Shown here in pieces: positions 45,641 through 57,332 of a stretch of DNA of 64,000 nucleotides; positions within the stretch are counted from its first letter, which is position 1; the number at the start of each line of letters is the position of its first letter. Source of the DNA: Escherichia coli (GTDB lineage: Bacteria; Pseudomonadota; Gammaproteobacteria; Enterobacterales; Enterobacteriaceae); assembly GCF_003334355.1 (NCBI RefSeq), contig NZ_QOWP01000005.1. One strand, written 5' to 3'. Under the pieces are notes generated by a model. The model was not told the DNA's origin. It was given only the letters and a program-made list of their open reading frames with translations, and ran no database searches. Both the position numbers and the translations under genes were made by a program.

Positions 45641-46513
45641 TTACAGCCACTCTACCCGCAACGACATCTCTGAAGTTGTTGATTCCCCTGGTGCTAGCGC
45701 AATGAGATCACCCCCTTCCGGGCGATGATGATCATCCGGCGCATGGCTCATCGGTTCCAGACAGAAGAAATCAAACGCATATCCTTTATCAAACGCAGGG
45801 TCGGAAACAAAGATGAAATAACACGGTGCAGGTGGCGTCGTTTCCATGATGATGGCATAACCTTCCTGCGGCTGCTCGATGCGGGCCTGACCATTCCATC
45901 CGGCAAAACCATTGTTCACCCACTGGCGCGGCAACGGCGCGGGCTGGTTAAAATCCAGTTCCTGCGGTAGCTGCTCGCAAAACTCACCCGCCAGCCACTG
46001 CTCCCGCTCCAGCCAGTAACCGCTCGCCTGTGCCTGAATCCGCGTTTGCGGCGACAACGGAAAATAAGGATGCCAGCCGGTACCAAATGGCAGCGTCTCT
46101 GCCCCTTGATTGGTGACAGAGAGCGTCACCGTCAGCGTATCCGCCGTTAAATGAAACGCCTGACTTACCCGATAGTGATAGACACCGCTGCGATGTTCAT
46201 ACACCAGACACAAACTATCATCGCTGTGCGAGACACATTGCCACTCGCCCAGCCAGCCATCGCCGTGTAGATAGTGCGCATCCCACTCAACATTCGGTTG
46301 CAGTTGATACTCACGCCCCTGCCAGACAAAACGATTGCCGCTCACCCGGTTTGCAAATGGCACCAGCGGAAAACATGAGGCATCGGTTGCCACACCGCTT
46401 TTTTTACCAGGACGTAAGAGCGGCGTCGTATCGCGCCAGAAGCCTTCGATTACGCCGCCCTGGTCAGAAACGTCCAGCTTTAGCGACCCGTGGGATAAGG
46501 TATAGATGGTCAT
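45641..46513 (-). CDS. yphB: aldose 1-epimerase-family protein YphB
   Basis: ORF track 290 aa. Confidence 0.88.
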   Translation of the reverse strand: MTIYTLSHGSLKLDVSDQGGVIEGFWRDTTPLLRPGKKSGVATDASCFPLVPFANRVSGNRFVWQGREYQLQPNVEWDAHYLHGDGWLGEWQCVSHSDDSLCLVYEHRSGVYHYRVSQAFHLTADTLTVTLSVTNQGAETLPFGTGWHPYFPLSPQTRIQAQASGYWLEREQWLAGEFCEQLPQELDFNQPAPLPRQWVNNGFAGWNGQARIEQPQEGYAIIMETTPPAPCYFIFVSDPAFDKGYAFDFFCLEPMSHAPDDHHRPEGGDLIALAPGESTTSEMSLRVEWL

Positions 46514-46524
46514 CCGCTAACTCC

Positions 46525-47586
46525 TTAATCCGGGAAGTTAATCACAACTTTCCCGCATTTGCCGCTCGCCATCAGCGCATAGGCATCACCTGCCTGTTCC
46601 AGCGAGAAGCGATGGGTAATGGCGTTACGCGGCCACAGCTTCCAGTCCGTCAGATCATGGGCGCATTTTTCCATATGGAACAGACTGGTCACCCAGGAGC
46701 CGATAATCCGCCGTTGATGGTGCATCAGATCGGCGCTGACCTCGAATTCCACTTCTCCGGTTTCACCAATGTAAACCACCCGTCCCCAGTCAGCGGTGGA
46801 TTGCAGTGCCAGCAAGCGACCTGCGGCATTACCGGAACAATCGAGCGCAACATCCGCGCCACCGTGGGTGAGTTCGGCGATAATCTGCGGCAGACCTTCG
46901 GTGGTTGCTAAATAGCCGTGATCCATCACCCCTAACTGTTTTGCCATCGCCAGACGTTCCGGCAGCATATCAACGCCGATGATCCGTTTTGCACCGCGAC
47001 CTTTCGCCAGCATCATCGCCATCATGCCGACCGGCCCCAGACCGACCACCAGCACGTTATCGCTGCCGGAAACTTCGCCGCGCAAAATCCCTTCATAGGC
47101 CGTGCCAACGCCGCAACTGATAAACGCACCATCTTCGTAGCTCAGCGCATCCGGCAGGAGGATCAGATCTTTTTCTTCCGCCAGCAGATATTCGGCATGA
47201 CCGCCGTCACGCTGCCAGCCGTAAGCCGCTTTTCCTTTGCCAGTACAAGAGATAGGAAAGCCGCGGCGGCAGTTCGGGCAAAAACCACAGCCAGAAATGT
47301 GATACACCAGCACGCGGTCGCCCTCTTTAAAATGGCGGCAGCCTTGCCCCATCGCCACAATCTGCCCGCACGGTTCATGACCGTTGATAAATCCTTGGTA
47401 TAACGGTTTGTCGGGTGCCGCTGCCGTAGCGCGGTGCTGGTGGTAGATATAGTGGACATCGCTTCCGCAAATTCCGGAAGATTTCATTTTGATCAGTACC
47501 TGGTTAATCCCTGGTGTCGGCACCGCAACTTCCCGTAGATCGACGGTCGAATTTCCTGGTAAATAAGCTGCCAGCATCGTTTTCAT
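46525..47586 (-). CDS. yphC: Zn-dependent alcohol/polyol dehydrogenase-family protein YphC
   Basis: ORF track frame; start at MKTMLAAYLPG (353 aa); GHEPCG Zn-site and GLGPVG NAD-site motifs. Confidence 0.88.
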   Translation of the reverse strand: MKTMLAAYLPGNSTVDLREVAVPTPGINQVLIKMKSSGICGSDVHYIYHQHRATAAAPDKPLYQGFINGHEPCGQIVAMGQGCRHFKEGDRVLVYHISGCGFCPNCRRGFPISCTGKGKAAYGWQRDGGHAEYLLAEEKDLILLPDALSYEDGAFISCGVGTAYEGILRGEVSGSDNVLVVGLGPVGMMAMMLAKGRGAKRIIGVDMLPERLAMAKQLGVMDHGYLATTEGLPQIIAELTHGGADVALDCSGNAAGRLLALQSTADWGRVVYIGETGEVEFEVSADLMHHQRRIIGSWVTSLFHMEKCAHDLTDWKLWPRNAITHRFSLEQAGDAYALMASGKCGKVVINFPD

Positions 47587-47651
47587 AAATCCCTCATTAA
47601 CAATACGATTAATTTTCATCCCTGCCGCACCCGCGCCAGGGGCGTTAAGGT

Positions 47652-48650
47652 TTAGCGTTTCGCTTTACTGCTTCGCTGGGTCAGCAAGATATTCGCCAGC
47701 ACCGCCACCACGATGATGACGCCGCGTACCACCTGCTGGAAAAAGGAGTTAATACCGAGCAGCACCAGACCGTTACCGATTAGCGTAATCACCAGCACAC
47801 CAAGCAATGTACCGAACAGGGAACCGCGACCGCCGGAAAGTGCCGTACCGCCGACCACGACCGCGGCGATGACGTCAAACTCCAGACCGTTTGCGGCACC
47901 TGCGTTACCAGAACCGAGGCGCGCCGCCAACAAAATGCCGGTCACCGCCGCTAATAATCCCGAAAGGGTAAAGATAAGAATGCGCACCCGACGAACGTTG
48001 ATGCCGCACAACTGCGCCGCCGTAGCATTACCGCCAACGGCAAAAACCGAGCGCCCGAAGGCGGTTTTGCGGCTGATGAACACAAACAGCGCAAACAACA
48101 CAATCATGATCAGCGCGGATACCGGCACACCGAGAAATTGTCCGCCCAGCCAGTCCAGCACCTCGTTTTCGTCAATCGGCACTGGCAGGGCGTTCGTCAT
48201 AAACAGCCCCATTCAGCGCAGGGCGCTCCACAGCCCCAGTGTGGCAACGAAACTTGGTACGTTAAACACGCCGCGCAGCACCCCGGCGAGCGTTCCCATC
48301 AGCGCGCCTAACAGCAACACCAGCAGACAAGCAATCGCCAACGGAACTTCAAATTGCAGCAAAAATGCCAGGCACACCGAGACAAAAGCCACCATCGGCC
48401 CAACGCTGACATCAATCTCACCGGAGATAATAATCAGCGTCATCGCCCAGGCGGCAATCCCAATGGTGGCGGCATCGCGCAGCACGTTCATCTGGTTATT
48501 CAATGAGATAAAGCCAGGCGCGTTCAGGGAGAAGACCAGATAAAGAATGGCAATCACCACCAGCAAACCGATCTCATTAATATGGCGACTGACAAATTGT
48601 TTGAGCGAGACGCTCTTGCCCTGCGGCAATGGTAATGACGAAGCAGACAT
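47652..48650 (-). pseudogene. yphD: ABC transporter permease YphD interrupted by an in-frame TGA (codon 146); TGA immediately followed by ATG
   Basis: ORF track gives two contiguous same-frame ORFs (48213..48650, 145 aa; 47652..48212, 186 aa); 145+1+186 = 332 codons, the length expected for an intact permease; by alignment to RbsC the stop sits where a Gly is expected. Confidence 0.6.
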
Positions 48651-48674
48651 CTTCAGGTTCCTCGGTAAAATTCA

Positions 48675-50186
48675 TCAGTGCACAGACAGAATGGCGGACA
48701 TCAGCTCATCCACATTGACCGGCGAGTGAAACTCCTGCGAGAACGTGCCGTGCTGTAATAACAGGATGCGGTCACACACCAGCGGCAACTCCTCCACTTC
48801 ACTGGAGATAAACACCACGCTTTTTCCTTCGGCAGCCAGCTCACGGACAATACGGTAAATCTGCTGTTTGGCTTCGATATCGACGCCGCGCGTTGGCTCG
48901 TCGAGCAACAAAATCTGGCTGGCGGCATAGACCCAACGACCGATCACTACTTTTTGCTGATTGCCGCCAGAAAGCGTGCCGATGGGCGTTTCGCTACTGG
49001 CGGCCTTGACCGTCATCCGCTGCATCACTTCTTCGGTCAGGCGGCGGATGGTGGACCATTGCAGCACTCCGTTGGCGCTGATTTTTTGCCGATTGGTCAG
49101 CACTGTATTTTCGTCAACGCCCAACCAGGGAATGATCCCCGCTTCTTTGCGGTTTTCTGGCGTATAGCCAATGCCGCGTTTCAGCATGTCGCCGTAATCG
49201 GGGCGCGTGATTTTCTCGCCGTTGATAACAATTTCGCCCTGTTCATACTCCTCCAGCCCAACAATCGCCTTCAGCAATTCACTGCGCCCTGCCCCCAGCA
49301 GACCAGCAATGCCGAGCACTTCGCCACGACGTAGCGTAAAACTGATATCCTCCAGCTTGGGCTTATGGCGTAACGCACGGACTTCCAGTACGGCCTGATC
49401 CACAATTTCCTGAGGGGCAACCGGCGCAATATCAACGTGATCGCGCCCGAGCATCAGCGACACAATATGATGCGTGGAGGTGTTTTCGAGCATCACATCG
49501 CCCGCCACCTGACCATCGCGCATAACGGTGGCACAGGAGGCAATGCGGCGAATTTCTTCCATCCGGTGGCTGACATAAATTACCGCCACGCCCAGTGCCG
49601 ACATCTTTTTCACCGCGCTGATCACCAGTTCAACTTCCGCACTGGCAAGCGAACTGGTAGGTTCATCAAGAATGACCACGCGCGGCTCGCCCTTCATCAC
49701 CCGCGCAATTTCCACCAGCTGCTTTTGCGCCGGGCTTAGTGTTGAAACAAGTTGTTCAGGACTAACGTCAACGCCCAACGCCTGTAAGCAACGTTGGGCA
49801 TCCTGCGCCATTTGCAGGTAATCAATCATGCCGTTGCGGCGGGGCCACTGACCGAGGCAGAAGTTTTCCGCCACCGTCAGCCCTTCCACCAGACTTAACT
49901 CCTGATAAACCGCGCGTACCCCCAGTTCAGCGGCACGGCGAGTCAGCGTAGCTTCGTCGCCTTCCAGTCGCGTCTCGCCAATCCAGATATCACCGCTATC
50001 CGGACGTTCGCTACCGGTAAGCATTCGAATGAGGGTCGATTTGCCCGCGCCGTTTTTGCCTAACAGCGCACGAACTTCGCCTTTATTGAGCGTGAAGTTA
50101 ACGTTATCCAACGCAACGACGCCGGGATAACGCTTATTTCCTGCCACCACTTTTGCTACCGGGACTGCCTCTGTTGCCGTGAACAT
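48675..50186 (-). CDS. yphE: ABC transporter ATPase with duplicated ATP-binding domains, YphE
   Basis: ORF track 503 aa; two Walker A motifs (GKNGAGKST; GLLGAGRS) and LSGG signatures. Confidence 0.92.
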   Translation of the reverse strand: MFTATEAVPVAKVVAGNKRYPGVVALDNVNFTLNKGEVRALLGKNGAGKSTLIRMLTGSERPDSGDIWIGETRLEGDEATLTRRAAELGVRAVYQELSLVEGLTVAENFCLGQWPRRNGMIDYLQMAQDAQRCLQALGVDVSPEQLVSTLSPAQKQLVEIARVMKGEPRVVILDEPTSSLASAEVELVISAVKKMSALGVAVIYVSHRMEEIRRIASCATVMRDGQVAGDVMLENTSTHHIVSLMLGRDHVDIAPVAPQEIVDQAVLEVRALRHKPKLEDISFTLRRGEVLGIAGLLGAGRSELLKAIVGLEEYEQGEIVINGEKITRPDYGDMLKRGIGYTPENRKEAGIIPWLGVDENTVLTNRQKISANGVLQWSTIRRLTEEVMQRMTVKAASSETPIGTLSGGNQQKVVIGRWVYAASQILLLDEPTRGVDIEAKQQIYRIVRELAAEGKSVVFISSEVEELPLVCDRILLLQHGTFSQEFHSPVNVDELMSAILSVH

Positions 50187-50208
50187 AGGGACCTCTGCGA
50201 ATCAGCGA

Positions 50209-51192
50209 TTAGGGCAGACCATCAACGTGCGTTGCCAGCCACTGTTTACCGTCTTCCGTTTTGGTATAGAGATCGATAGGCACCTGAATCACTTTTTCAC
50301 CGTCGGCTTGTTTATTGATAACCTTCAATGTTTGCGCGAAAACAGCATTGCCCATTTTCTTACCGGAAATATCCACTACCGCTTTCAGCACCTGATTGTT
50401 TTCCAGCTCCTGAGCAATTTCGGTTGTCATATCCGAACCGAAAACAGCAATTTTTCCGGCCTGATTTTGATTACGTACCGCTTTTACCGCGCCGAGTGTC
50501 GCACCGCCCGATTCCCCCATAATGGCGTTGAGATCCGGCGTGGAGATAATCAGTTTTTCACCAACGGAAATCGCTTTATCTAAAACAGTCCCTTCCTGAT
50601 TAGCGACAATTTGCGCGCCGGGAACGCGGGCTTTTAATACTTCTTCAAACCCTTTACGTCGTTGCACACAAACTTCAAAGGCTTCGCAATTGATGACGGC
50701 AATTTTCGGCTGGTCAATTTTATTGGCAATAAAATAATCGGCGGCAGCGTTACCCAGTTTTTTACCAAATTCCAGTGGATCGCCGACCAGATACGCCGAG
50801 ACATATTTATCGACACCCTTTTGATTAATACAGGTGTTGTAGCAAATCACCGGAATACCCGCTTCACTGGCGCGACGAACGGTACGGCTACTGCCATTTT
50901 CAGACACTGCCGATAAAATAATGGCATCGACATTACGCGCCACGAGGGTATCAACAAAGGTACTTTCTTTCGAAATATCACCCTGGGCGTTAGTTTCAAT
51001 TAACTGTACCTGTACTGAAGAATCTTTTGCCGCATCCTGAACGCCCTGACGCACTCCAGCGTAATATCCCTGGGTATCAAGGTATATTGCACCAATGGTC
51101 ATTTCTTTATCCGCAGCCCTGGCAAATAGTGCGCTACCTAATAGCGTAGCCATTAATAATAGATTACGGGTTGTTCTCATTTTTTTAGGCAT
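50209..51192 (-). CDS. yphF: periplasmic sugar-binding protein YphF
   Basis: ORF track 327 aa; signal peptide; periplasmic-binding-protein fold-like composition. Confidence 0.9.
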   Translation of the reverse strand: MPKKMRTTRNLLLMATLLGSALFARAADKEMTIGAIYLDTQGYYAGVRQGVQDAAKDSSVQVQLIETNAQGDISKESTFVDTLVARNVDAIILSAVSENGSSRTVRRASEAGIPVICYNTCINQKGVDKYVSAYLVGDPLEFGKKLGNAAADYFIANKIDQPKIAVINCEAFEVCVQRRKGFEEVLKARVPGAQIVANQEGTVLDKAISVGEKLIISTPDLNAIMGESGGATLGAVKAVRNQNQAGKIAVFGSDMTTEIAQELENNQVLKAVVDISGKKMGNAVFAQTLKVINKQADGEKVIQVPIDLYTKTEDGKQWLATHVDGLP

Positions 51193-51288
51193 AGTACCTC
51201 CTGTAGGGTTTTTATTAACAACGGCTTATTCTAATTATTTTGTGATGAGCGGCAGCGCATGCCGCTCAAATATTACAGTTAATAGGGT

Positions 51289-54200
51289 TTAGTGAACGTA
51301 GTTAAAAATAAAAGGCATCACGGTGGTGAATAATGCCGCTTTCGGCCAGGCCGGATTAATCGCCGTCAATTCAGCGCGAGCAGATTCATATTGCGCAACC
51401 TCCCCGAGTCCCGCGGACGCCAGCATCGCCACCATCAGGCATTTTTCTTTATGCTGCTGTTGTAAATCGCCATACAGCGACAACAGGTCAGGTTGTGAAA
51501 CAGCAAAGAAATCCGCCTCAATACTGGTTTTCGCCATCTCTTGCGCCCACTGTTTCATTTCACTAAACAGTTGCTGTGCGGTTTGCTGTTCACCCAGCAG
51601 TCGCAGCGCCATTCCTTGCCAGAAGAGATAATCAACCGGCTGATCGTTGTAATAACTGTGGATGTTAATGGTGCGATCGCCGGTCGCCGCCAGACGTAAA
51701 CAACGCATCGCTTCAGTTTCATCGCCCTGCGCGTTGGCGCATATCGCCTGCCAGAACCAGATGTCGTTATCAGTTTGCCCCGGTAAACGGCCTTCGCTTA
51801 AATTCTCCGGATAATGCAGCGCGGCATGAAGCAGTTCGCTGGCCTGCTGCGGCTCTCTGGCATCAAGATGCTGCCAGGCGCGTAATAACTGGTTGAGGAT
51901 AAACTGACTGGTGACCTTCCCTTCCCCGCCTTCCCACGGGTGGAATTTACGCGTGGCGAGAATGTCCGCCGCTTTGTCTGCCTGACCCGTGAGATGCCAC
52001 AAATTGAGCAGTTCTGCGGTCATGTCGTCGCGTTTCAGCGCAATTTCCTGATTATTTTCCAGACGCGCCAGTCGTTTCTCCGGTGTGGCTCCACTTAACT
52101 TATCAAGCAAATCCCGTTCGAAAAGCAGACGTGCATCCTGCGGCGCAAGCTGATAAGCATTATCAAGATAACGCGCGGCCAGCTCATAATCGTGTTGCTT
52201 ATTCCACGCATGGATCGCTAACCCGCGCCAGCCGTCGGCAAACTCCGGCGACATCTCTACGCAACGTTGCCATAAGGCAATGGCTTTGTTGTAGCTACGT
52301 TTGTTATAGTAGAAGCAGGCCAGTAAATGGCGAGCAAACCAGCACTCTTCAATACTCTCCAGCGCCGCCACTTCTTCCAGCGTATTCGGGAAACGGACAA
52401 ACTGCGGGAAGACATCAATGGCTTTTGCGACCAGTTCGCCACGTTCGGCTTTCGGCAGCAAGCTGGCTTGCAGGTAAAGCGGCAGCGTGCGCTGGCAGTC
52501 CAGTGCGTTCAGCATCTCTGCCGCCAGGGTGGGCATTCCCCAGTTAATCAGTTGCCCGGCGGTCATCAGAGCGTTAACGTCGCGTCCCTGACACAGACCG
52601 CGCCACTGCGCGAGGGCTGATTCGCTACGACCATCGAACCAGTTCAGCCACCACAGAGTGGCGTTCAGCGGATAATCGCGCAGCAGTTTCTCGCGCTGCA
52701 AACGCGCGTTGTCCTGACGACCACTTAACACCAGCAGCAGGTTATGCAGGCAAAGCACTTCCTGATTGGTTGGGCAGGCGCGAAGACTTTGTTGGCAAAA
52801 ATCCAGACCCGCATCGAAGTTACCATTACGCGCAGCCAGTCGTGCCAGGCCATAATAGCCACCGGCTTTGCTGTTGCCGCTCCAGACCGCCCGCCAGAAA
52901 TCCTCTTCGGCTTGTTGATATTGTCCCTGACGTTCGTAAGCACTGGCGCGAATCAAACTCGCCTGTCCGCACTGCGGATTTTTGTTCAGCGCATGTGCGC
53001 GTTTCAGAGCCTGAGTGGCATACGCCACCGCTTGCGGGAAATCGGCACGGTTATATTCCAGCATCGCCAGCGCCAGGTTACAGCGGTAATCCAGCGGATC
53101 CAGCGCCACGCCGCGTAGGTAGTAATCGAACGGTGAACGGCTGGCGTGATGATATTGCTCCAGATGCTGACCGATAAACCAGGCTTCATCTGTACTGGTA
53201 ATGTCTTGTGCTGCCAGTGGCGCTTTGGCGACGTCCGGCAACGGCAACTCTTGCGGCTGATGTTCCTGATAACTCAGTACAATATTGCCGTCGGCATCGG
53301 AGAGCTCAATGGTCAGCCTTTCAGGATTGATACCGTGCAACACGCCCTGGATGGCGGTCGCAGGCATCAGTGCCACGGCATCATCAAGTAACGCGTTGCA
53401 TTTGCCGATTTCGCGGATCGCCAGGCGGTATCCGTTCAACGGAGAGATGGCATACAGCCCCCACTCAATCCCCCGCTCACTACGCTGGAGTTTTATCACC
53501 GCATCGCGGGAGGCATTTTGCACCATGCCCAAAGAATGATAAGGCAGGAAATACTGCTCAAAACGCTTCTCTTCGTAAGCATCAAGCCAGGTAAAATCAG
53601 GCTGGTTATCGGCAAAAATACCGGTCATCAGTTCGATATACGGGCCGTTATTGTCGGTCAGACTCTTATCCCACGCCTGGCCAAATTCACTGTGTCCCCA
53701 GCTCCACTGCTTTTTACCTGGCGCAATATGGTGGTTGGCAACGTGTAGCAAACCACCATCTTCATCGTGACACCACGCGCCAACAAAATCGTACTGTGAT
53801 TTTTCAGCCATATATGAGGTTGGAACGGGCACATTTTTATAGCGAGAAATGTCCACTCCAGCGGAGTAGTCCACTTTGTAGTAAGTGCCGGTGGCGATGG
53901 GGAAAGCGGAGACGGCCCGTTTGCCGTGATCAAACACCGCAGTCACATCCGGCGGGAAAACGCTCTGATGCCCTTCCCCCCCTTTCACTGCCGGGTTGGC
54001 CCACCACAAGAAATGACGCGGCGTGGCGTTGCCGTTATAGACGCGGCTGGCGATTTCCAGCGCCGCCCGGTCAGGGCGCAGGGTGAAACCTGTCATCACC
54101 TGTAAACCATGCATCGGCTCCGTTTCGCCGACCCACACCGTCTGTGCGCCGTCTTCATGGGCTTCGAGGGTGAAATCAACGGGCATAAAGGTGGTCGGGC

Positions 54201-54570
54201 GATGGTGTTGCGGCCAGTTAAACTCAATCCCGCCAGAGATCCACGGTCCCAGCAGCCCCACCAGCGCAGGTTTAATGACTTCATTGTGATAGACAAAATC
54301 GCGCTGTTTCACTTTATCCCATGCGCGATGCACCCGACCGCCCAGTTCCGGCAGGATCATCACTTTGATGTAGTCGTTTTCCAGCCACACCGCCTGCCAG
54401 GATTTCAGGGTTTTCTGTTCACTCAGCGTATCGGTCACGCCGTAGGGATAAACCGCGCCGGACGATCCCTGATAAACGCGATTTTCCAGGAACATGGGAT
54501 GTATATCCTGCGGCCCGGTTTCATAGGTCGGGATCTCAACGCGCTCTTGCCACACTTTTACTGGAGTCAT
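51289..54570 (-). CDS. yphG: large uncharacterized protein YphG (TPR-like repeats in the C-terminal half)
   Basis: ORF track frame; ATG 54570 with GAGGG SD gives 1093 aa; the track's TTG start at 54663 would leave only about 20 bp for divergent promoters. Confidence 0.85.
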   Translation of the reverse strand: MTPVKVWQERVEIPTYETGPQDIHPMFLENRVYQGSSGAVYPYGVTDTLSEQKTLKSWQAVWLENDYIKVMILPELGGRVHRAWDKVKQRDFVYHNEVIKPALVGLLGPWISGGIEFNWPQHHRPTTFMPVDFTLEAHEDGAQTVWVGETEPMHGLQVMTGFTLRPDRAALEIASRVYNGNATPRHFLWWANPAVKGGEGHQSVFPPDVTAVFDHGKRAVSAFPIATGTYYKVDYSAGVDISRYKNVPVPTSYMAEKSQYDFVGAWCHDEDGGLLHVANHHIAPGKKQWSWGHSEFGQAWDKSLTDNNGPYIELMTGIFADNQPDFTWLDAYEEKRFEQYFLPYHSLGMVQNASRDAVIKLQRSERGIEWGLYAISPLNGYRLAIREIGKCNALLDDAVALMPATAIQGVLHGINPERLTIELSDADGNIVLSYQEHQPQELPLPDVAKAPLAAQDITSTDEAWFIGQHLEQYHHASRSPFDYYLRGVALDPLDYRCNLALAMLEYNRADFPQAVAYATQALKRAHALNKNPQCGQASLIRASAYERQGQYQQAEEDFWRAVWSGNSKAGGYYGLARLAARNGNFDAGLDFCQQSLRACPTNQEVLCLHNLLLVLSGRQDNARLQREKLLRDYPLNATLWWLNWFDGRSESALAQWRGLCQGRDVNALMTAGQLINWGMPTLAAEMLNALDCQRTLPLYLQASLLPKAERGELVAKAIDVFPQFVRFPNTLEEVAALESIEECWFARHLLACFYYNKRSYNKAIALWQRCVEMSPEFADGWRGLAIHAWNKQHDYELAARYLDNAYQLAPQDARLLFERDLLDKLSGATPEKRLARLENNQEIALKRDDMTAELLNLWHLTGQADKAADILATRKFHPWEGGEGKVTSQFILNQLLRAWQHLDAREPQQASELLHAALHYPENLSEGRLPGQTDNDIWFWQAICANAQGDETEAMRCLRLAATGDRTINIHSYYNDQPVDYLFWQGMALRLLGEQQTAQQLFSEMKQWAQEMAKTSIEADFFAVSQPDLLSLYGDLQQQHKEKCLMVAMLASAGLGEVAQYESARAELTAINPAWPKAALFTTVMPFIFNYVH

Positions 54571-54687
54571 GGTGCCCTCAATATTAACAAGACATACTGA
54601 ATTAAAAGATTTGTGGCAGTGTATTGAACAATCTGGCAATGTTTTCGCGGAATAATCACGCAATTAACTAAACAAGGTTTAGTGAAG

Positions 54688-55881
54688 ATGAGAGCCTGCA
54701 TTAACAACCAACAGATTCGCCACCATAACAAATGCGTGATTCTGGAACTGCTGTACCGGCAAAAGCGCGCCAATAAATCAACGCTGGCCCGGCTGGCGCA
54801 AATTTCGATTCCGGCAGTCAGTAATATTTTGCAGGAACTGGAAAGCGAAAAACGGGTGGTGAATATCGACGATGAAAGCCAGACGCGCGGGCATAGTAGC
54901 GGTACATGGCTGATTGCGCCGGAAGGTGACTGGACGCTGTGTCTGAACGTGACGCCCACCAGTATTGAGTGTCAGGTTGCTAATGCTTGTTTAAGTCCGA
55001 AAGGTGAATTTGAGTATTTACAGATTGATGCACCGACGCCGCAGGCGCTGCTGTCCGAAATCGAAAAATGCTGGCATCGCCACCGTAAATTGTGGCCGGA
55101 CCGCACCATCAATCTGGCGCTGGCAATCCACGGTCAGGTTGATCCGGTGACCGGCGTATCGCAAACCATGCCGCAAGCGCCGTGGACAACGCCGGTTGAG
55201 GTGAAGTATCTGCTGGAAGAGAAGCTGGGCATTCGGGTGATGGTCGATAATGACTGCGTGATGCTGGCGCTGGCGGAGAAATGGCAAAATAATTCGCAGG
55301 AACGGGATTTCTGCGTGATCAACGTTGATTACGGCATTGGCTCGTCGTTCGTGATTAACGAGCAAATTTATCGCGGCAGTTTGTATGGTAGCGGACAGAT
55401 TGGTCACACCATCGTTAATCCGGATGGCGTCGTCTGCGACTGTGGACGTTACGGCTGCCTGGAAACCGTCGCCTCGTTAAGTGCATTAAAAAAACAGGCG
55501 CGGGTATGGCTAAAATCACAACCGGTTAATACTCAGCTTGATCCTGAAAAACTGACAACCGCGCAGTTAATCGCTGCCTGGCAGAGTGGAGAACCGTGGA
55601 TCACCAGCTGGGTTGATCGCTCTGCCAATGCCATTGGTTTGAGTCTGTATAACTTCCTCAACATCCTCAATATTAATCAGATTTGGTTGTACGGTCGCAG
55701 TTGTGCCTTTGGTGAGAACTGGCTTAATACTATTATTCGCCAGACAGGATTTAACCCGTTCGACCGCGACGAAGGACCGAGCGTGAAAGCGACGCAAATT
55801 GGCTTTGGGCAATTAAGCCGCGCACAACAGGTGCTGGGAATTGGCTATTTGTATGTTGAGGCGCAGTTACGACAGATTTGA
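54688..55881 (+). CDS. yphH: ROK-family (NagC/XylR-like) transcriptional regulator YphH
   Basis: ORF track frame; ATG 54688 (397 aa); N-terminal HTH; ROK Cys motif C-x-C-G-x2-G-C. Confidence 0.85.
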   Translation: MRACINNQQIRHHNKCVILELLYRQKRANKSTLARLAQISIPAVSNILQELESEKRVVNIDDESQTRGHSSGTWLIAPEGDWTLCLNVTPTSIECQVANACLSPKGEFEYLQIDAPTPQALLSEIEKCWHRHRKLWPDRTINLALAIHGQVDPVTGVSQTMPQAPWTTPVEVKYLLEEKLGIRVMVDNDCVMLALAEKWQNNSQERDFCVINVDYGIGSSFVINEQIYRGSLYGSGQIGHTIVNPDGVVCDCGRYGCLETVASLSALKKQARVWLKSQPVNTQLDPEKLTTAQLIAAWQSGEPWITSWVDRSANAIGLSLYNFLNILNINQIWLYGRSCAFGENWLNTIIRQTGFNPFDRDEGPSVKATQIGFGQLSRAQQVLGIGYLYVEAQLRQI

Positions 55882-56036: not shown

Positions 56037-56078
56037 AACATGAACAACGAGCACATTGTCAGCAAATCACCGTTTCGC

Positions 56079-57332
56079 TTATGCGTAAACCGGGTAACGT
56101 GCGCAGATGTCGAGAACTTTACCTTTGATGCGCTCGATAACGGCTTCATCATTGATGCTGTCCAGCACGTCACACATCCAGCCAGCCAGTTCTTTCGCTT
56201 CGGCTTCTTTGAAGCCGCGACGCGTAATTGCCGGAGTACCCACGCGAATACCGGAGGTCACAAACGGGCTCTTCGGATCGTTCGGTACGCTGTTTTTGTT
56301 GACGGTGATGTTAGCACGGCCCAGAGCGGCGTCTGCTTCTTTACCGGTCAGGTTTTTATCAACCAGATCAACCAGGAACAGGTGGTTATCAGTGCCGCCG
56401 GAAACGACTTTGTAGCCGCGCTCGAGGAACACTTCTACCATCGCTTTAGCGTTTTTCGCGACCTGCTGCTGGTAAGTTTTGAACTCAGGCTCCATCGCTT
56501 CTTTCAGAGCAACCGCTTTACCGGCGATTACGTGCATCAACGGACCGCCCTGACCACCAGGGAAAACGGCAGAGTTCAGTTTTTTGTACAGCTCTTCGCT
56601 ACCACCTTTCGCCAGGATCAGGCCGCCGCGCGGACCCGCCAGGGTTTTGTGAGTGGTGGTAGTAACAACGTGAGCATGAGGAACCGGGTTCGGGTAGACG
56701 CCAGCAGCAACCAGGCCCGCAACGTGCGCCATATCAACGAACAGGTAAGCACCGATGCTGTCAGCGATTTCACGCATTTTCGCCCAGTCAACCACGCCGG
56801 AATATGCAGAGAAGCCACCGATAATCATTTTCGGCTTGTGTTCTTTGGCTTGTTTTTCCAGATCGGCGTAGTCGATATGACCGGTAGCATCGATACCGTA
56901 AGGAACGATGTTGTACAGTTTACCGGAGAAGTTAACCGGAGAACCGTGAGTCAGGTGACCGCCATGCGCCAGGTTCATACCCAGAACGGTATCACCTGGT
57001 TCCAGCAGCGCGGTGTAGACCGCAAAGTTAGCCTGGGAGCCGGAGTGCGGCTGGACGTTAGCGTAGTCAGCGCCGAACAGTTCTTTCGCACGATCGATCG
57101 CCAGTTGTTCAACGATATCAACATACTCGCAACCGCCGTAGTAGCGTTTGCCCGGATAACCTTCAGCATATTTGTTGGTCAGCTGAGAACCCTGCGCCTG
57201 CATTACGCGCGGGCTGGTGTAGTTTTCGGAGGCGATCAGTTCGATGTGCTCTTCCTGACGTACTTTTTCCTGCTTCATAGCCTGCCACAGTTCGGCATCA
57301 TAATCGGCAATGTTCATTTCACGCTTTAACAT
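56079..57332 (-). CDS. glyA: serine hydroxymethyltransferase
   Basis: ORF track frame; start at [19 protein letters not shown] (417 aa); PLP-Lys context [14 protein letters not shown]. Confidence 0.97.

Follow-up and report, generated by a model that had tools for sequence, protein, structure and literature searches.

The yphB–yphH locus of Escherichia coli and YphG, a mutarotase-fold TPR protein and most likely a novel sugar-converting enzyme

Within the window, the 64,000-nucleotide stretch of Escherichia coli DNA analyzed here, positions 45641–55881 carry yphB, yphC, yphD, yphE, yphF and yphG, all on the minus strand, and the divergent yphH on the plus strand, flanked by hcaD-yphA and glyA-hmpA. 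All seven genes had been listed by a first-pass annotation, with which open reading frames and annotation concur. The first minus-strand gene, yphG (51289–54570), encodes a cytoplasmic protein of 1093 aa; it is followed by yphF (50209–51192; 327 aa), a periplasmic sugar-binding protein with a signal peptide, yphE (48675–50186; 503 aa), a fused double ABC ATPase of the CUT2 type, yphD (47652–48650), a CUT2 ABC permease of 332 aa when intact but interrupted in the present strain, yphC (46525–47619; 364 aa), a Zn-dependent medium-chain (polyol-type) dehydrogenase, and lastly yphB (45641–46513; 290 aa), a cytoplasmic protein with an aldose-1-epimerase fold. On the plus strand, yphH (54688–55881; 397 aa) encodes a ROK-family transcription regulator. 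Genes between yphF and yphB lie 11–32 bp apart and a gap of 96 bp follows yphG, promoter and terminator scans of the locus remained at chance level, and gene order suggests that yphG-F-E-D-C-B form one operon. The families initially proposed (a mutarotase-like YphB, a Zn dehydrogenase for YphC, a sugar ABC importer for YphDEF, TPR repeats in YphG and a ROK regulator in YphH) are confirmed by profile and structure matches. The locus had also been described as uncharacterized, and indeed the literature searched assigns no function to it, and holds no biochemical or genetic data and no phenotype for any yph gene.

The 10,241-bp region is matched in 5,426 of 5,426 complete E. coli genomes, with at least 80% of it covered at one place in 5,371. 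The Klebsiella locus keeps the order yphH | yphG-F-E-D-C-B, with a YphG identity of 74%, and comparison with strain 81 reveals six differences in 10.2 kb, including a stop codon in yphD, all other reading frames being full length. This stop (48213–48215, minus strand) changes GGA (Gly146) into TGA, directly next to the native ATG of Met147, and splits yphD into open reading frames of 145 and 186 aa. Among the complete E. coli genomes that could be scored, namely those with a match to the 56-mer spanning the site and free of additional SNPs inside it, 2,233 contain the exact wild-type 56-mer and none contains that of the window. The same stop allele is nevertheless found on another contig (L092, run ERR4578542, in 6 samples) that matches the window without a difference along 6,010 bp; its presence in this other sequenced isolate shows that the stop is no sequencing error but a real, if rare, lineage allele. 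The suggestion that the stop may signal a decaying module thus stands only in part: the stop is real, but it is a single recent and rare nonsense mutation in a locus otherwise intact and present in nearly all E. coli, and not general decay. Since the permease is affected, this strain is predicted to take up the sugar poorly or not at all.

Does the cluster form one functional unit at all? The gene yphG could be unrelated to a generic sugar ABC operon beside which it lies by chance, in a locus that is a non-functional relic in E. coli. The broken permease of the present strain, the lack of any phenotype in the literature searched, and the gap after yphG, which exceeds the others and contains a hairpin, would fit such a view. 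It is highly improbable in our estimation, considering the conserved Klebsiella gene order, the near-universal presence of the locus in E. coli, the few differences and intact remaining frames relative to strain 81, and the sugar transporters that accompany YphG relatives across phyla, as detailed below.

The intact yphD allele scores 227 bits against RbsC and 222 bits against AraH (NCBIfam), both under cut-off, as are the best matches of YphE, AraG (454 bits), XylG and AlsA; the identical YphE product encoded on L092 shows two ABC_tran domains. YphF, whose N-terminus reads MPKKMRTTRNLLLMATLLGSALFARA, weakly matches allose, galactose, AI-2, rhizopine and ribose binding proteins (NCBIfam), its nearest structure being 5hsg. 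YphC harbors the full set of Zn ligands, both catalytic (Cys51, His81, Glu82) and structural (C111-x2-C-x2-C-x7-C125), and a Rossmann motif of the GxGxxG type (GLGPVG); its best NCBIfam matches (Tdh, IolM, GatD) are all far under their cut-offs, and its best PDB matches are alcohol, xylitol and sorbitol dehydrogenases. YphB matches PDB 3nre (E 5e-210), and its family alignment holds the mutarotase motifs ANRV..NRF, LHGD, WHPYF and CLEP. The E. coli monosaccharide operons of the CUT2 class (rbs, ara, xyl, als, mgl and ytf) resemble yph in having a Peripla_BP_4 binding protein, a fused double ATPase, a BPD_transp_2 permease, a dedicated repressor and adjacent catabolic enzymes. However, all Yph components score far under the equivalog cut-offs of these systems, and yph has no kinase or isomerase of known type, YphG standing in their place. 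The NCBIfam model nearest to YphB is PRK15172 (41 bits for a cut-off of 251; an equivalog named aldose-1-epimerase), which we take to be the YihR model. In the sulfoquinovose locus yihO-yihW, the mutarotase YihR is encoded beside the glycosidase YihQ, and both loci thus associate a dedicated mutarotase-fold enzyme with a sugar-liberating or sugar-converting one, although yph lacks a GH31 glycosidase, an isomerase, a kinase and an aldolase.

YphH, described as the third, uncharacterized ROK repressor of E. coli (PMC4288165), shares with NagC and Mlc an N-terminal helix-turn-helix, a ROK domain and the zinc motif (GHx9CDCGRYGCLE), but scores only 112 bits with the NagC model (cut-off 650) and 109 bits with that of Mlc (cut-off 530). 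Unlike them, it falls in a small and divergent ROK cluster of its own, in which the linker is atypical and devoid of the Gly-Arg motif that most of the other clusters conserve (PMC4288165). On contig L006 and in the loci of Klebsiella, Serratia and Aeromonas, the YphG gene diverges from a ROK gene and is also adjoined by that of a YphB relative (31–64% identity). The candidate YphH operator is an exact palindrome, ACTAAAC-N3-GTTTAGT (54667–54683), located 4 nt upstream of the yphH start codon, the sole exact match in the window and kept in E. coli, Klebsiella, Serratia and Aeromonas; short and AT-rich (17 bp, or 23 bp with flanking bases), it is of the general NagC/Mlc type. Next to it, a box ATCACGCAAT (ATTGCGTGAT in yphG orientation; 54655–54664), kept in the four genera, is possibly a CRP half-site, as judged from its similarity to TGTGA, or else a promoter element. 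The level of YphF, together with those of XylF, MalE and MglA, is higher when cells grow on levoglucosan than when they grow on fructose (PMC8753852), which fits catabolite control. Finally, the 96-bp yphG-yphF gap contains a GC-rich stem-loop, GAGCGGCA-TGCGC-TGCCGCTC, without a T-run (51247–51267, minus strand), that forms when the gap is folded at minimum free energy (z = -2.2), and whose stem is maintained in Klebsiella and on L019; it may act as an intercistronic mRNA stabilizer or a partial attenuator.

YphG itself, said in the first-pass annotation to have no obvious catalytic motif, turns out to possess a mutarotase-fold domain with near-invariant His and Glu residues. Pfam recognizes DUF5107 at residues 39–324 as well as TPR repeats, and structure prediction (AlphaFold2, pLDDT 94.7, pTM 0.92) and fold search, both advocated earlier, resolve an aldose-1-epimerase (mutarotase) fold at residues 1–345 (53536–54570, minus strand) and a TPR superhelix of about 30 helices at residues about 455–1093 (51292–53208, minus strand). 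A representative search retrieves 5,774 relatives with E < 1e-3, among which the full-length architecture is maintained to about 27–30% identity; a signal peptide was not found in YphG or its relatives at about 40% identity. A cluster of invariant or near-invariant polar residues occupies the N-terminal domain in the alignments. Conservation across the family peaks in WISGGIEFNWPQHHRP (codons 110–125; 54196–54243, minus strand; alignments A2 and A3), a motif that served as search pattern for the metagenome scan. Glu313 (53632–53634, minus strand), a candidate catalytic base in a YIELM strand, is invariant in 121 and 66 sequences; by motif order, and not by superposition, it lies at the relative position of the glutamate of the mutarotase C(L/I)EP motif, and by the same criterion the position equivalent to the mutarotase general-acid His may be Asn192. 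Within the TPR region, alignments and model delineate a conserved non-helical loop, FHPWEGGEG (codons 876–884; 51919–51945, minus strand), with F876, E880, G881 and G882 at least 90% conserved, and which, we infer, contacts the sugar site.

The closest structures are true mutarotases, not glycosidases. A profile comparison of DUF5107 with aldose epimerases detected no sequence homology, which, like the possible Asn at the general-acid position, weighs against a mutarotase-type enzyme. With stand-alone aldose 1-epimerases (GalM 1l7j, Bacillus subtilis YoxA 3mwx, YeaD 2hta, yeast hexose-6-phosphate mutarotase 2ciq and YphB 3nre), YphG shares 8–15% identity, but it is three times their size, with an extra beta-sandwich and the TPR helices. 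PDB 5cd6 (BDI_1685 of Parabacteroides distasonis, a structural genomics entry whose molecule name, 'TPR-domain containing protein', gives no function) has 580 residues against 1093 and 21% identity; H123, W190, N192, H215 and E313 are retained, whereas the WISGGIEFNWPQHHRP and DNQPD motifs are changed.

The genomic neighborhood of YphG relatives was surveyed within 5 kb of 39 non-redundant, well-flanked loci, mostly from one clade at about 40% identity to YphG. A sugar transporter is found in 31 loci, and is adjacent on the same strand in 22; it is an XylE-like MFS protein in 27 (a sugar porter, with XylE closest) and a CUT2 ABC system in 3. Co-occurrence of yphG with yphDEF, which it had been proposed to check, is therefore rare in its narrow form (CUT2 ABC, 3/39) but widespread when any sugar transporter is considered (31/39, mostly a directly adjacent XylE-like MFS protein). 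A sugar-type regulator is present in 28 loci (AraC in 24, ROK in 4), LacI and two-component regulators as well as CUT1 transporters also occurring, and an aldose epimerase in 14, while a YphC-like gene is encountered in only 2. The core maintained in evolution thus comprises YphG, a sugar regulator and a sugar transporter whose class may differ, frequently joined by a mutarotase; YphC is accessory and belongs to the version found in E. coli and Klebsiella. The complete uptake-plus-catabolism module initially envisaged keeps its genes for sugar uptake and conversion, but with an accessory YphC and with yphDEF as an unusual partner of YphG. The GalM-type neighbors display all canonical GalM motifs, so YphG is not merely the mutarotase of its locus, and since a canonical mutarotase is often encoded beside it, its reaction is probably not plain mutarotation. 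In Bacteroidota, the neighbors include an exo-beta-1,4-galactosidase, an alpha-galactosidase and a beta-L-arabinopyranosidase-like protein, pointing to sugars of galactose or arabinose configuration.

Against an enzymatic reading, a TPR solenoid such as this one, of 630 residues, more typically serves protein-protein interaction than it does catalysis. YphG could instead be a non-catalytic sugar sensor or adaptor, whose mutarotase-fold domain binds sugar and whose solenoid binds YphH or the transporter, coupling sugar availability to expression or transport; the ROK repressor Mlc, for one, is sequestered by PtsG and by MtfA. In favor of this view, TPR solenoids are well known as protein-interaction modules, a mutarotase fold need not be enzymatic (9grx), yphG is always the first gene of the operon and adjoins the regulator gene in Enterobacterales and Aeromonas, and the divergent ROK cluster and atypical linker of YphH could reflect such a partnership. 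A dedicated anti-repressor should nonetheless co-vary with its target, whereas YphG remains constant while regulator (ROK, AraC, LacI, two-component) and transporter (CUT2, CUT1, MFS) classes vary freely, which fits an enzyme better than a partner-specific adaptor. Moreover, the residues most strongly conserved are polar ones (His, Glu, Asp, Arg) in the sugar-site domain, the invariant Glu among them, and certain distant relatives are secreted and so could not have a cytoplasmic regulator as partner. A non-catalytic role of this kind therefore appears unlikely.

On balance, it is somewhat probable that yphH | yphGFEDCB is an operon under repressor control that serves to take up a small carbohydrate, of about monosaccharide size, and to begin its conversion, with YphG as the cytoplasmic core enzyme acting at the anomeric carbon. 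The sugar would be imported by YphF, YphE and YphD, and YphG would catalyze the committed cytoplasmic step using mutarotase-type acid/base residues (His122/123, His215, Glu313), in a site covered by the TPR solenoid that would supply further conserved residues (FHPWEGGEG loop, Arg782). This step could consist of ring opening and re-closure to another ring form or isomer, or of release of a small aglycone. YphB would next equilibrate the anomers of the free aldose, and YphC would add a polyol/ketose redox step in the E. coli/Klebsiella version. As long as the sugar or a product is absent, YphH would sit on the palindrome and repress the operon, and CRP may contribute catabolite control.

A sharper version of this explanation, overlapping it, makes YphG a cytoplasmic glycoside hydrolase or lyase of a novel type. 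The enzyme would act on small glycosides, such as a short galactoside or a galactosyl- or arabinosyl-polyol, and cleave them into a free aldose, anomerized by YphB or GalM, and an aglycone polyol, oxidized by YphC in E. coli. This version would give a role to every E. coli yph gene and draws on several observations: BT4151-like GH2 exo-beta-1,4-galactosidases beside YphG relatives in 18 of 72 clusters, some of which, in Gram-positive-like loci, lack a signal peptide; a GH97-type alpha-galactosidase, a GH92 family hydrolase and SusC/SusD in the vicinity; many conserved carboxylates (E64, D85, E116, D306, E313, D321, D325, E333, E818, D848, E880); the existence of secreted relatives; and the presence of DUF5107 among ortholog groups marking phagotrophic stramenopiles, several of which are digestive enzymes (PMC8163842). 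This version is rather unlikely, as the structural resemblance is to mutarotases, neither a known catalytic glycoside hydrolase domain nor an (alpha/alpha)6 barrel was found in YphG, the transporters are of monosaccharide type (XylE-like MFS, CUT2), and the neighboring glycosidases of Bacteroidota are periplasmic, so that free monosaccharide should be what enters the cytoplasm. Taken together, a mutarotase-type domain capped by a helical repeat, with a sugar transporter near about four fifths of the relatives sampled, makes YphG most likely a new kind of sugar-converting enzyme.

The yph locus is an already known, uncharacterised piece of the Escherichia coli genome, and the 10,241-bp region is matched in all 5,426 complete E. 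coli genomes, a single place covering at least 80% of it in 5,371. In the reference annotation of strain 81, hcaD and yphA are followed by yphB to yphG, with the yph genes on one strand, then by the divergent yphH, glyA and hmpA. The ORFs of the window agree with this annotation, which bears out the gene set proposed by the first-pass annotation: yphB (45641-46513), yphC (46525-47619), yphE (48675-50186), yphF (50209-51192) and yphG (51289-54570, encoding 1093 aa) on the minus strand, together with yphD (47652-48650, minus strand), which is split by a stop, and yphH (54688-55881) on the plus strand. The gaps among the minus-strand genes, from yphB to yphG, measure 11, 32, 24, 22 and 96 bp, and yphG lies 117 bp from its divergent neighbour yphH. 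The start of yphC is ambiguous, as RefSeq gives a protein of 364 aa in strain 81, and the calls in the Klebsiella locus (L005) and in the ERR4578542 contig (L092) begin at an internal Met12 (353 aa). In H1, the best-matching complete E. coli genome (NZ_CM136169.1 1424362-1435379), the 10,241-bp query aligns in two segments that together extend over 11,018 bp, the yph region there being interrupted by about 0.8 kb of inserted sequence, probably an IS element. Downstream, a 429-aa ORF (56040-57329, plus strand) antisense to glyA (56079-57332, minus strand) is a shadow ORF and no gene.

In the window, yphD is broken into ORFs of 145 and 186 aa by a TGA that replaces GGA (Gly146) at 48215-48213, immediately followed by the native ATG of Met147. 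No complete E. coli genome holds an exact copy of the window's 56-mer spanning this stop, and 2,233 hold the wild-type 56-mer, a score that covers exact matches only, genomes with an extra SNP or no match lying outside it. Both truncated products are present in public collections, and the ERR4578542 contig (6 samples) agrees with the window at every position over 6,010 bp, TGA included. A sequencing error is ruled out by this independent assembly, and selenocysteine incorporation or programmed readthrough can be set aside because the ancestral codon encodes glycine and the allele is rare. The contigs of five other independent assemblies (L093-L097) stop exactly at the G/T site of codon 146, as though the assembly graph had broken at the variant, and the spurious "145-aa" partial proteins that result have the same sequence as the genuine truncated YphD. 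Given the identical independent contig, the few differences from strain 81 and the intactness of the other frames, the stop is a genuine allele of recent origin and low frequency. Loss of permease function is the predicted consequence, a point relevant to anyone phenotyping this strain. The suggestion that the module may be decaying does not hold more broadly, since the locus is otherwise intact, with just 6 positions differing from strain 81 over its whole length and every frame except yphD preserved.

The other components fall into recognisable families, but each scores below the models of characterised systems. YphB matches PDB 3nre, an entry named "Aldose 1-epimerase", and has both the fold and the Arg/His/His/Glu motifs (ANRV, LHGD, WHPYF, CLEP) of aldose 1-epimerases (PF01263), a domain also carried by its orthologue in the ERR4578542 contig; its score against the aldose-1-epimerase equivalog PRK15172, which we take to be the YihR sulfoquinovose mutarotase model, is 40.8 bits for a cut-off of 251. 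YphC is a zinc-dependent medium-chain dehydrogenase (MDR), with catalytic C51/H81/E82, structural C111/114/117/125 and a GLGPVG nucleotide-fold motif, and resembles threonine, inosose, galactitol-phosphate, xylitol and sorbitol dehydrogenases, although it remains under the equivalog cut-offs (in brackets) of Tdh (172 bits; 380), IolM (169; 450), GatD (108; 550) and IdnD (90; 469). YphDEF has the composition of a CUT2 importer, namely a Peripla_BP_4 binding protein with a signal peptide (YphF), a fused double ATPase of about 500 aa (YphE) and a BPD_transp_2 permease (YphD). YphE is nearest to AraG, XylG and AlsA, YphD to RbsC and AraH, and YphF is weakly similar to allose, galactose, AI-2 and ribose binders; compared with the rbs, ara, xyl, als, mgl, ytf and lsr systems, every component lies under the equivalog cut-off, the best equivalog score of YphF being 64 bits. 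YphH combines an N-terminal helix-turn-helix, a ROK domain (PF00480 in its orthologues) and a CxCGxxGC zinc motif, as expected of ROK regulators, and scores 112 bits against NagC (cut-off 650) and 109 bits against Mlc (cut-off 530).

YphH has been described as uncharacterised (PMC4288165), and no paper assigning a function to the yph genes was found in the literature searched. Full-text searches for DUF5107, PF17128, DUF4380 and the yph genes yielded no functional study, and a search for BT4150-BT4152 returned nothing useful. In the literature YphF is raised on levoglucosan, but XylF, MalE and MglA rise together with it, so that the effect is read as catabolite derepression and levoglucosan was rejected as a clue to the substrate.

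Regarding regulation, positions 54667-54683, 4 nt upstream of the yphH start, form the exact palindrome ACTAAAC-N3-GTTTAGT, which adjoins a box, ATCACGCAAT, both being kept from E. coli to Aeromonas. The palindrome is a candidate YphH operator, and the ATCACGCAAT box is perhaps a CRP half-site. A copy with three mismatches at 51277-51293 overlaps the yphG stop codon; lying between yphG and yphF, it is suggestively placed, but with 1.6 such copies expected by chance it was not retained as a second operator. The gap between yphG and yphF also contains, on the minus strand, a GC-rich stem-loop without a T-run (GAGCGGCA-TGCGC-TGCCGCTC, 51247-51267), which is kept in Klebsiella and in L019, a relative of 75% identity, and which may help to set the expression of the genes relative to one another. 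The Klebsiella gap has a second, additional hairpin. Within the final 16 codons of yphG lies a terminator-like hairpin with a T-run (51314-51337, minus strand); the terminator scan of the region was at chance level (15 found, 13.4 expected), as was a generic promoter scan.

The least explained component was YphG, in which no signal peptide was found. Pfam assigns it DUF5107 (PF17128) at residues 39-324 (E 3.1e-55) and TPR repeats, without a match to Aldose_epim, and its relatives form 5,774 representative clusters at E < 1e-3, 1,159 of them at E < 1e-30, the architecture of about 1,100 residues being retained down to about 27-30% identity. An AlphaFold2 model built from 66 sequences (pLDDT 94.7, pTM 0.92) has three parts: a beta domain (residues 1-345) with the beta-supersandwich fold of mutarotases, a second beta-sandwich (about 357-435) and some 30 helices (460-1092) forming tandem helix-turn-helix repeats that match TPR proteins in profile and structure. 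A GH15/GH65-like (alpha/alpha)6 barrel was rejected for these helices, which match TPR solenoids, and no recognised catalytic domain of glycoside hydrolases or polysaccharide lyases (TIM barrel, (alpha/alpha)6 barrel, beta-helix and others) was found in the protein. A fold search of AFDB50 returned nothing but unnamed DUF5107 and TPR proteins, and, TPR proteins apart, the one sequence relative with a solved structure is 5cd6, which structural genomics deposited without annotation (BDI_1685 of Parabacteroides distasonis, 21% identical).

In the family alignments, conservation is concentrated in the sugar-site domain, with R79, D85, K86, N179, W190, N192, H215 and D306, a motif at residues 110-125 (WISGGIEFNWPQHHRP), an invariant E313 and a conserved DNQPD (321-325); H123, W190, N192, H215 and E313 are retained even in 5cd6. 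In the solenoid, R782 is invariant among the 66 aligned sequences, and residues 876-884 (FHPWEGGEG), which form a non-helical loop, are strongly conserved. The order of the conserved residues along the chain agrees with the Arg/His/His/Asp/Glu of mutarotases, and H122/H123, H215 and E313 occur in the right order for the His96/His170/Glu304 set of GalM, with N192 located, by chain order, where His170 might be. As the comparison was made by order rather than by superposition, and profile comparison of this domain gave no sequence homology to PF01263-type epimerases (hhalign probability at most 0.1 against YphB-type and GalM-type alignments), we infer these equivalences, and consider H123, H215 and E313 as candidate catalytic residues. 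In several relatives at 30% identity or less in the family alignment, the N-terminus is a clear signal peptide, and part of the family is thus exported.

What accompanies YphG elsewhere? The Klebsiella locus has the same arrangement as E. coli; those of Aeromonas and Serratia comprise a divergent ROK gene, YphG, an MFS sugar porter and a YphB-like gene, without ABC system or dehydrogenase, and more distant relatives are paired with AraC and a CUT2 ABC system, AraC and MFS, LacI and CUT1, or a two-component system and CUT1. A metagenome scan added 80 loci, and clustering at 90% identity gave 72 non-E. coli clusters, of which the 39 with at least 3 kb on either side were counted, without taxon labels, for features within 5 kb of the YphG homologue. 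A sugar transporter of any class was found in 31 of these 39 loci (adjoining and on the same strand in 22), generally a XylE-like MFS protein (27 loci), more rarely a CUT2 (3) or CUT1 (1) ABC system. AraC regulators occurred in 24 loci, ROK regulators in 4, aldose epimerases in 14 and YphC-like dehydrogenases in 2. The co-occurrence of yphG with yphDEF, put forward as a check of the proposed module, thus fails for the ABC importer as such and stands for sugar transporters in general. The MFS partner is a sugar porter that scores 410-420 bits against the XylE model, under the cut-off of 608, and is better conserved between loci (47-61% identity) than YphG itself.

A constant association of YphG with a sugar transporter, in which transporter and regulator classes are interchangeable, is the pattern expected of an enzyme handling the imported sugar. 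YphG could also be a sensor or adaptor, a possible role given its TPR repeats, but this pattern speaks against a partner dedicated to a single regulator. Canonical GalM is frequently encoded beside YphG relatives, and the reaction is therefore probably beyond simple mutarotation, producing or consuming a free aldose at C1. On balance we lean towards YphG being a cytoplasmic enzyme that would act at the anomeric carbon, by His/Glu acid-base chemistry beneath a TPR lid; YphB would then anomerise the aldose, and YphC would provide an accessory redox step in the E. coli/Klebsiella version.

As for the substrate, many YphG loci contain SusC/SusD and glycosidases, including a BT4151-like GH2 exo-beta-1,4-galactosidase, a GH97-type alpha-galactosidase, a beta-L-arabinopyranosidase-like protein and GH92, and in Bacteroidota the polysaccharide-utilisation loci often place genes for galactosidases and arabinopyranosidases close to the YphG relative. 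These neighbours weakly suggest galactose- or arabinose-configured sugars. Most neighbouring glycosidases have signal peptides, which are absent from the YphG relatives and GalM-type neighbours. In five loci that look Gram-positive (L026, L043, L053, L061, L073), the YphG homologue adjoins a BT4151-like GH2 galactosidase without signal peptide; in the SusC/SusD loci the corresponding genes mostly have one. Another setting, represented by L054 (3278-18694) and shared with L079, looks like a rare-sugar or polyol context: the neighbours of a YphG homologue of 41% identity are a genuine D-psicose 3-epimerase (473 bits against a cut-off of 300), a YphC-like dehydrogenase of 48% identity, an SDR, a ROK protein, a PfkB sugar kinase and a HAD phosphatase. 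In a sharper version of the anomeric-carbon model, YphG would hydrolyse a small glycosyl-polyol, which would account for all the E. coli yph genes but conflicts with the monosaccharide-type transporters.

Taken together, a mutarotase-type site, a usual transporter neighbour and the nearby galactosidase and arabinopyranosidase genes of Bacteroidota make a testable enzyme hypothesis for YphG. A bolder and rather doubtful proposal, which we offer tentatively and as a whole, is that YphG founds a new enzyme class, with a mutarotase-fold site enclosed by a TPR solenoid, for a sugar conversion currently without an assigned gene (candidates being hydrolysis of small galactosyl or arabinosyl glycosides, pyranose/furanose interconversion or aldose/ketose isomerisation), and that the MFS-YphG pair might represent a widespread, overlooked cytoplasmic step after pectin or arabinogalactan breakdown in gut Bacteroidota, operating also in Enterobacterales. 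The observation behind the first-pass annotation is thus confirmed and its interpretation partly supported; what is new is the fold of YphG with its candidate active site, a redefined set of conserved partners for it, and the nature of the stop in yphD. The yph genes, present in nearly every E. coli, have long ranked among the unknowns of the K-12 genome; if the hypothesis on YphG is confirmed, it would add a missing step in gut carbohydrate metabolism, and seven E. coli genes of unknown function would gain an assignment.
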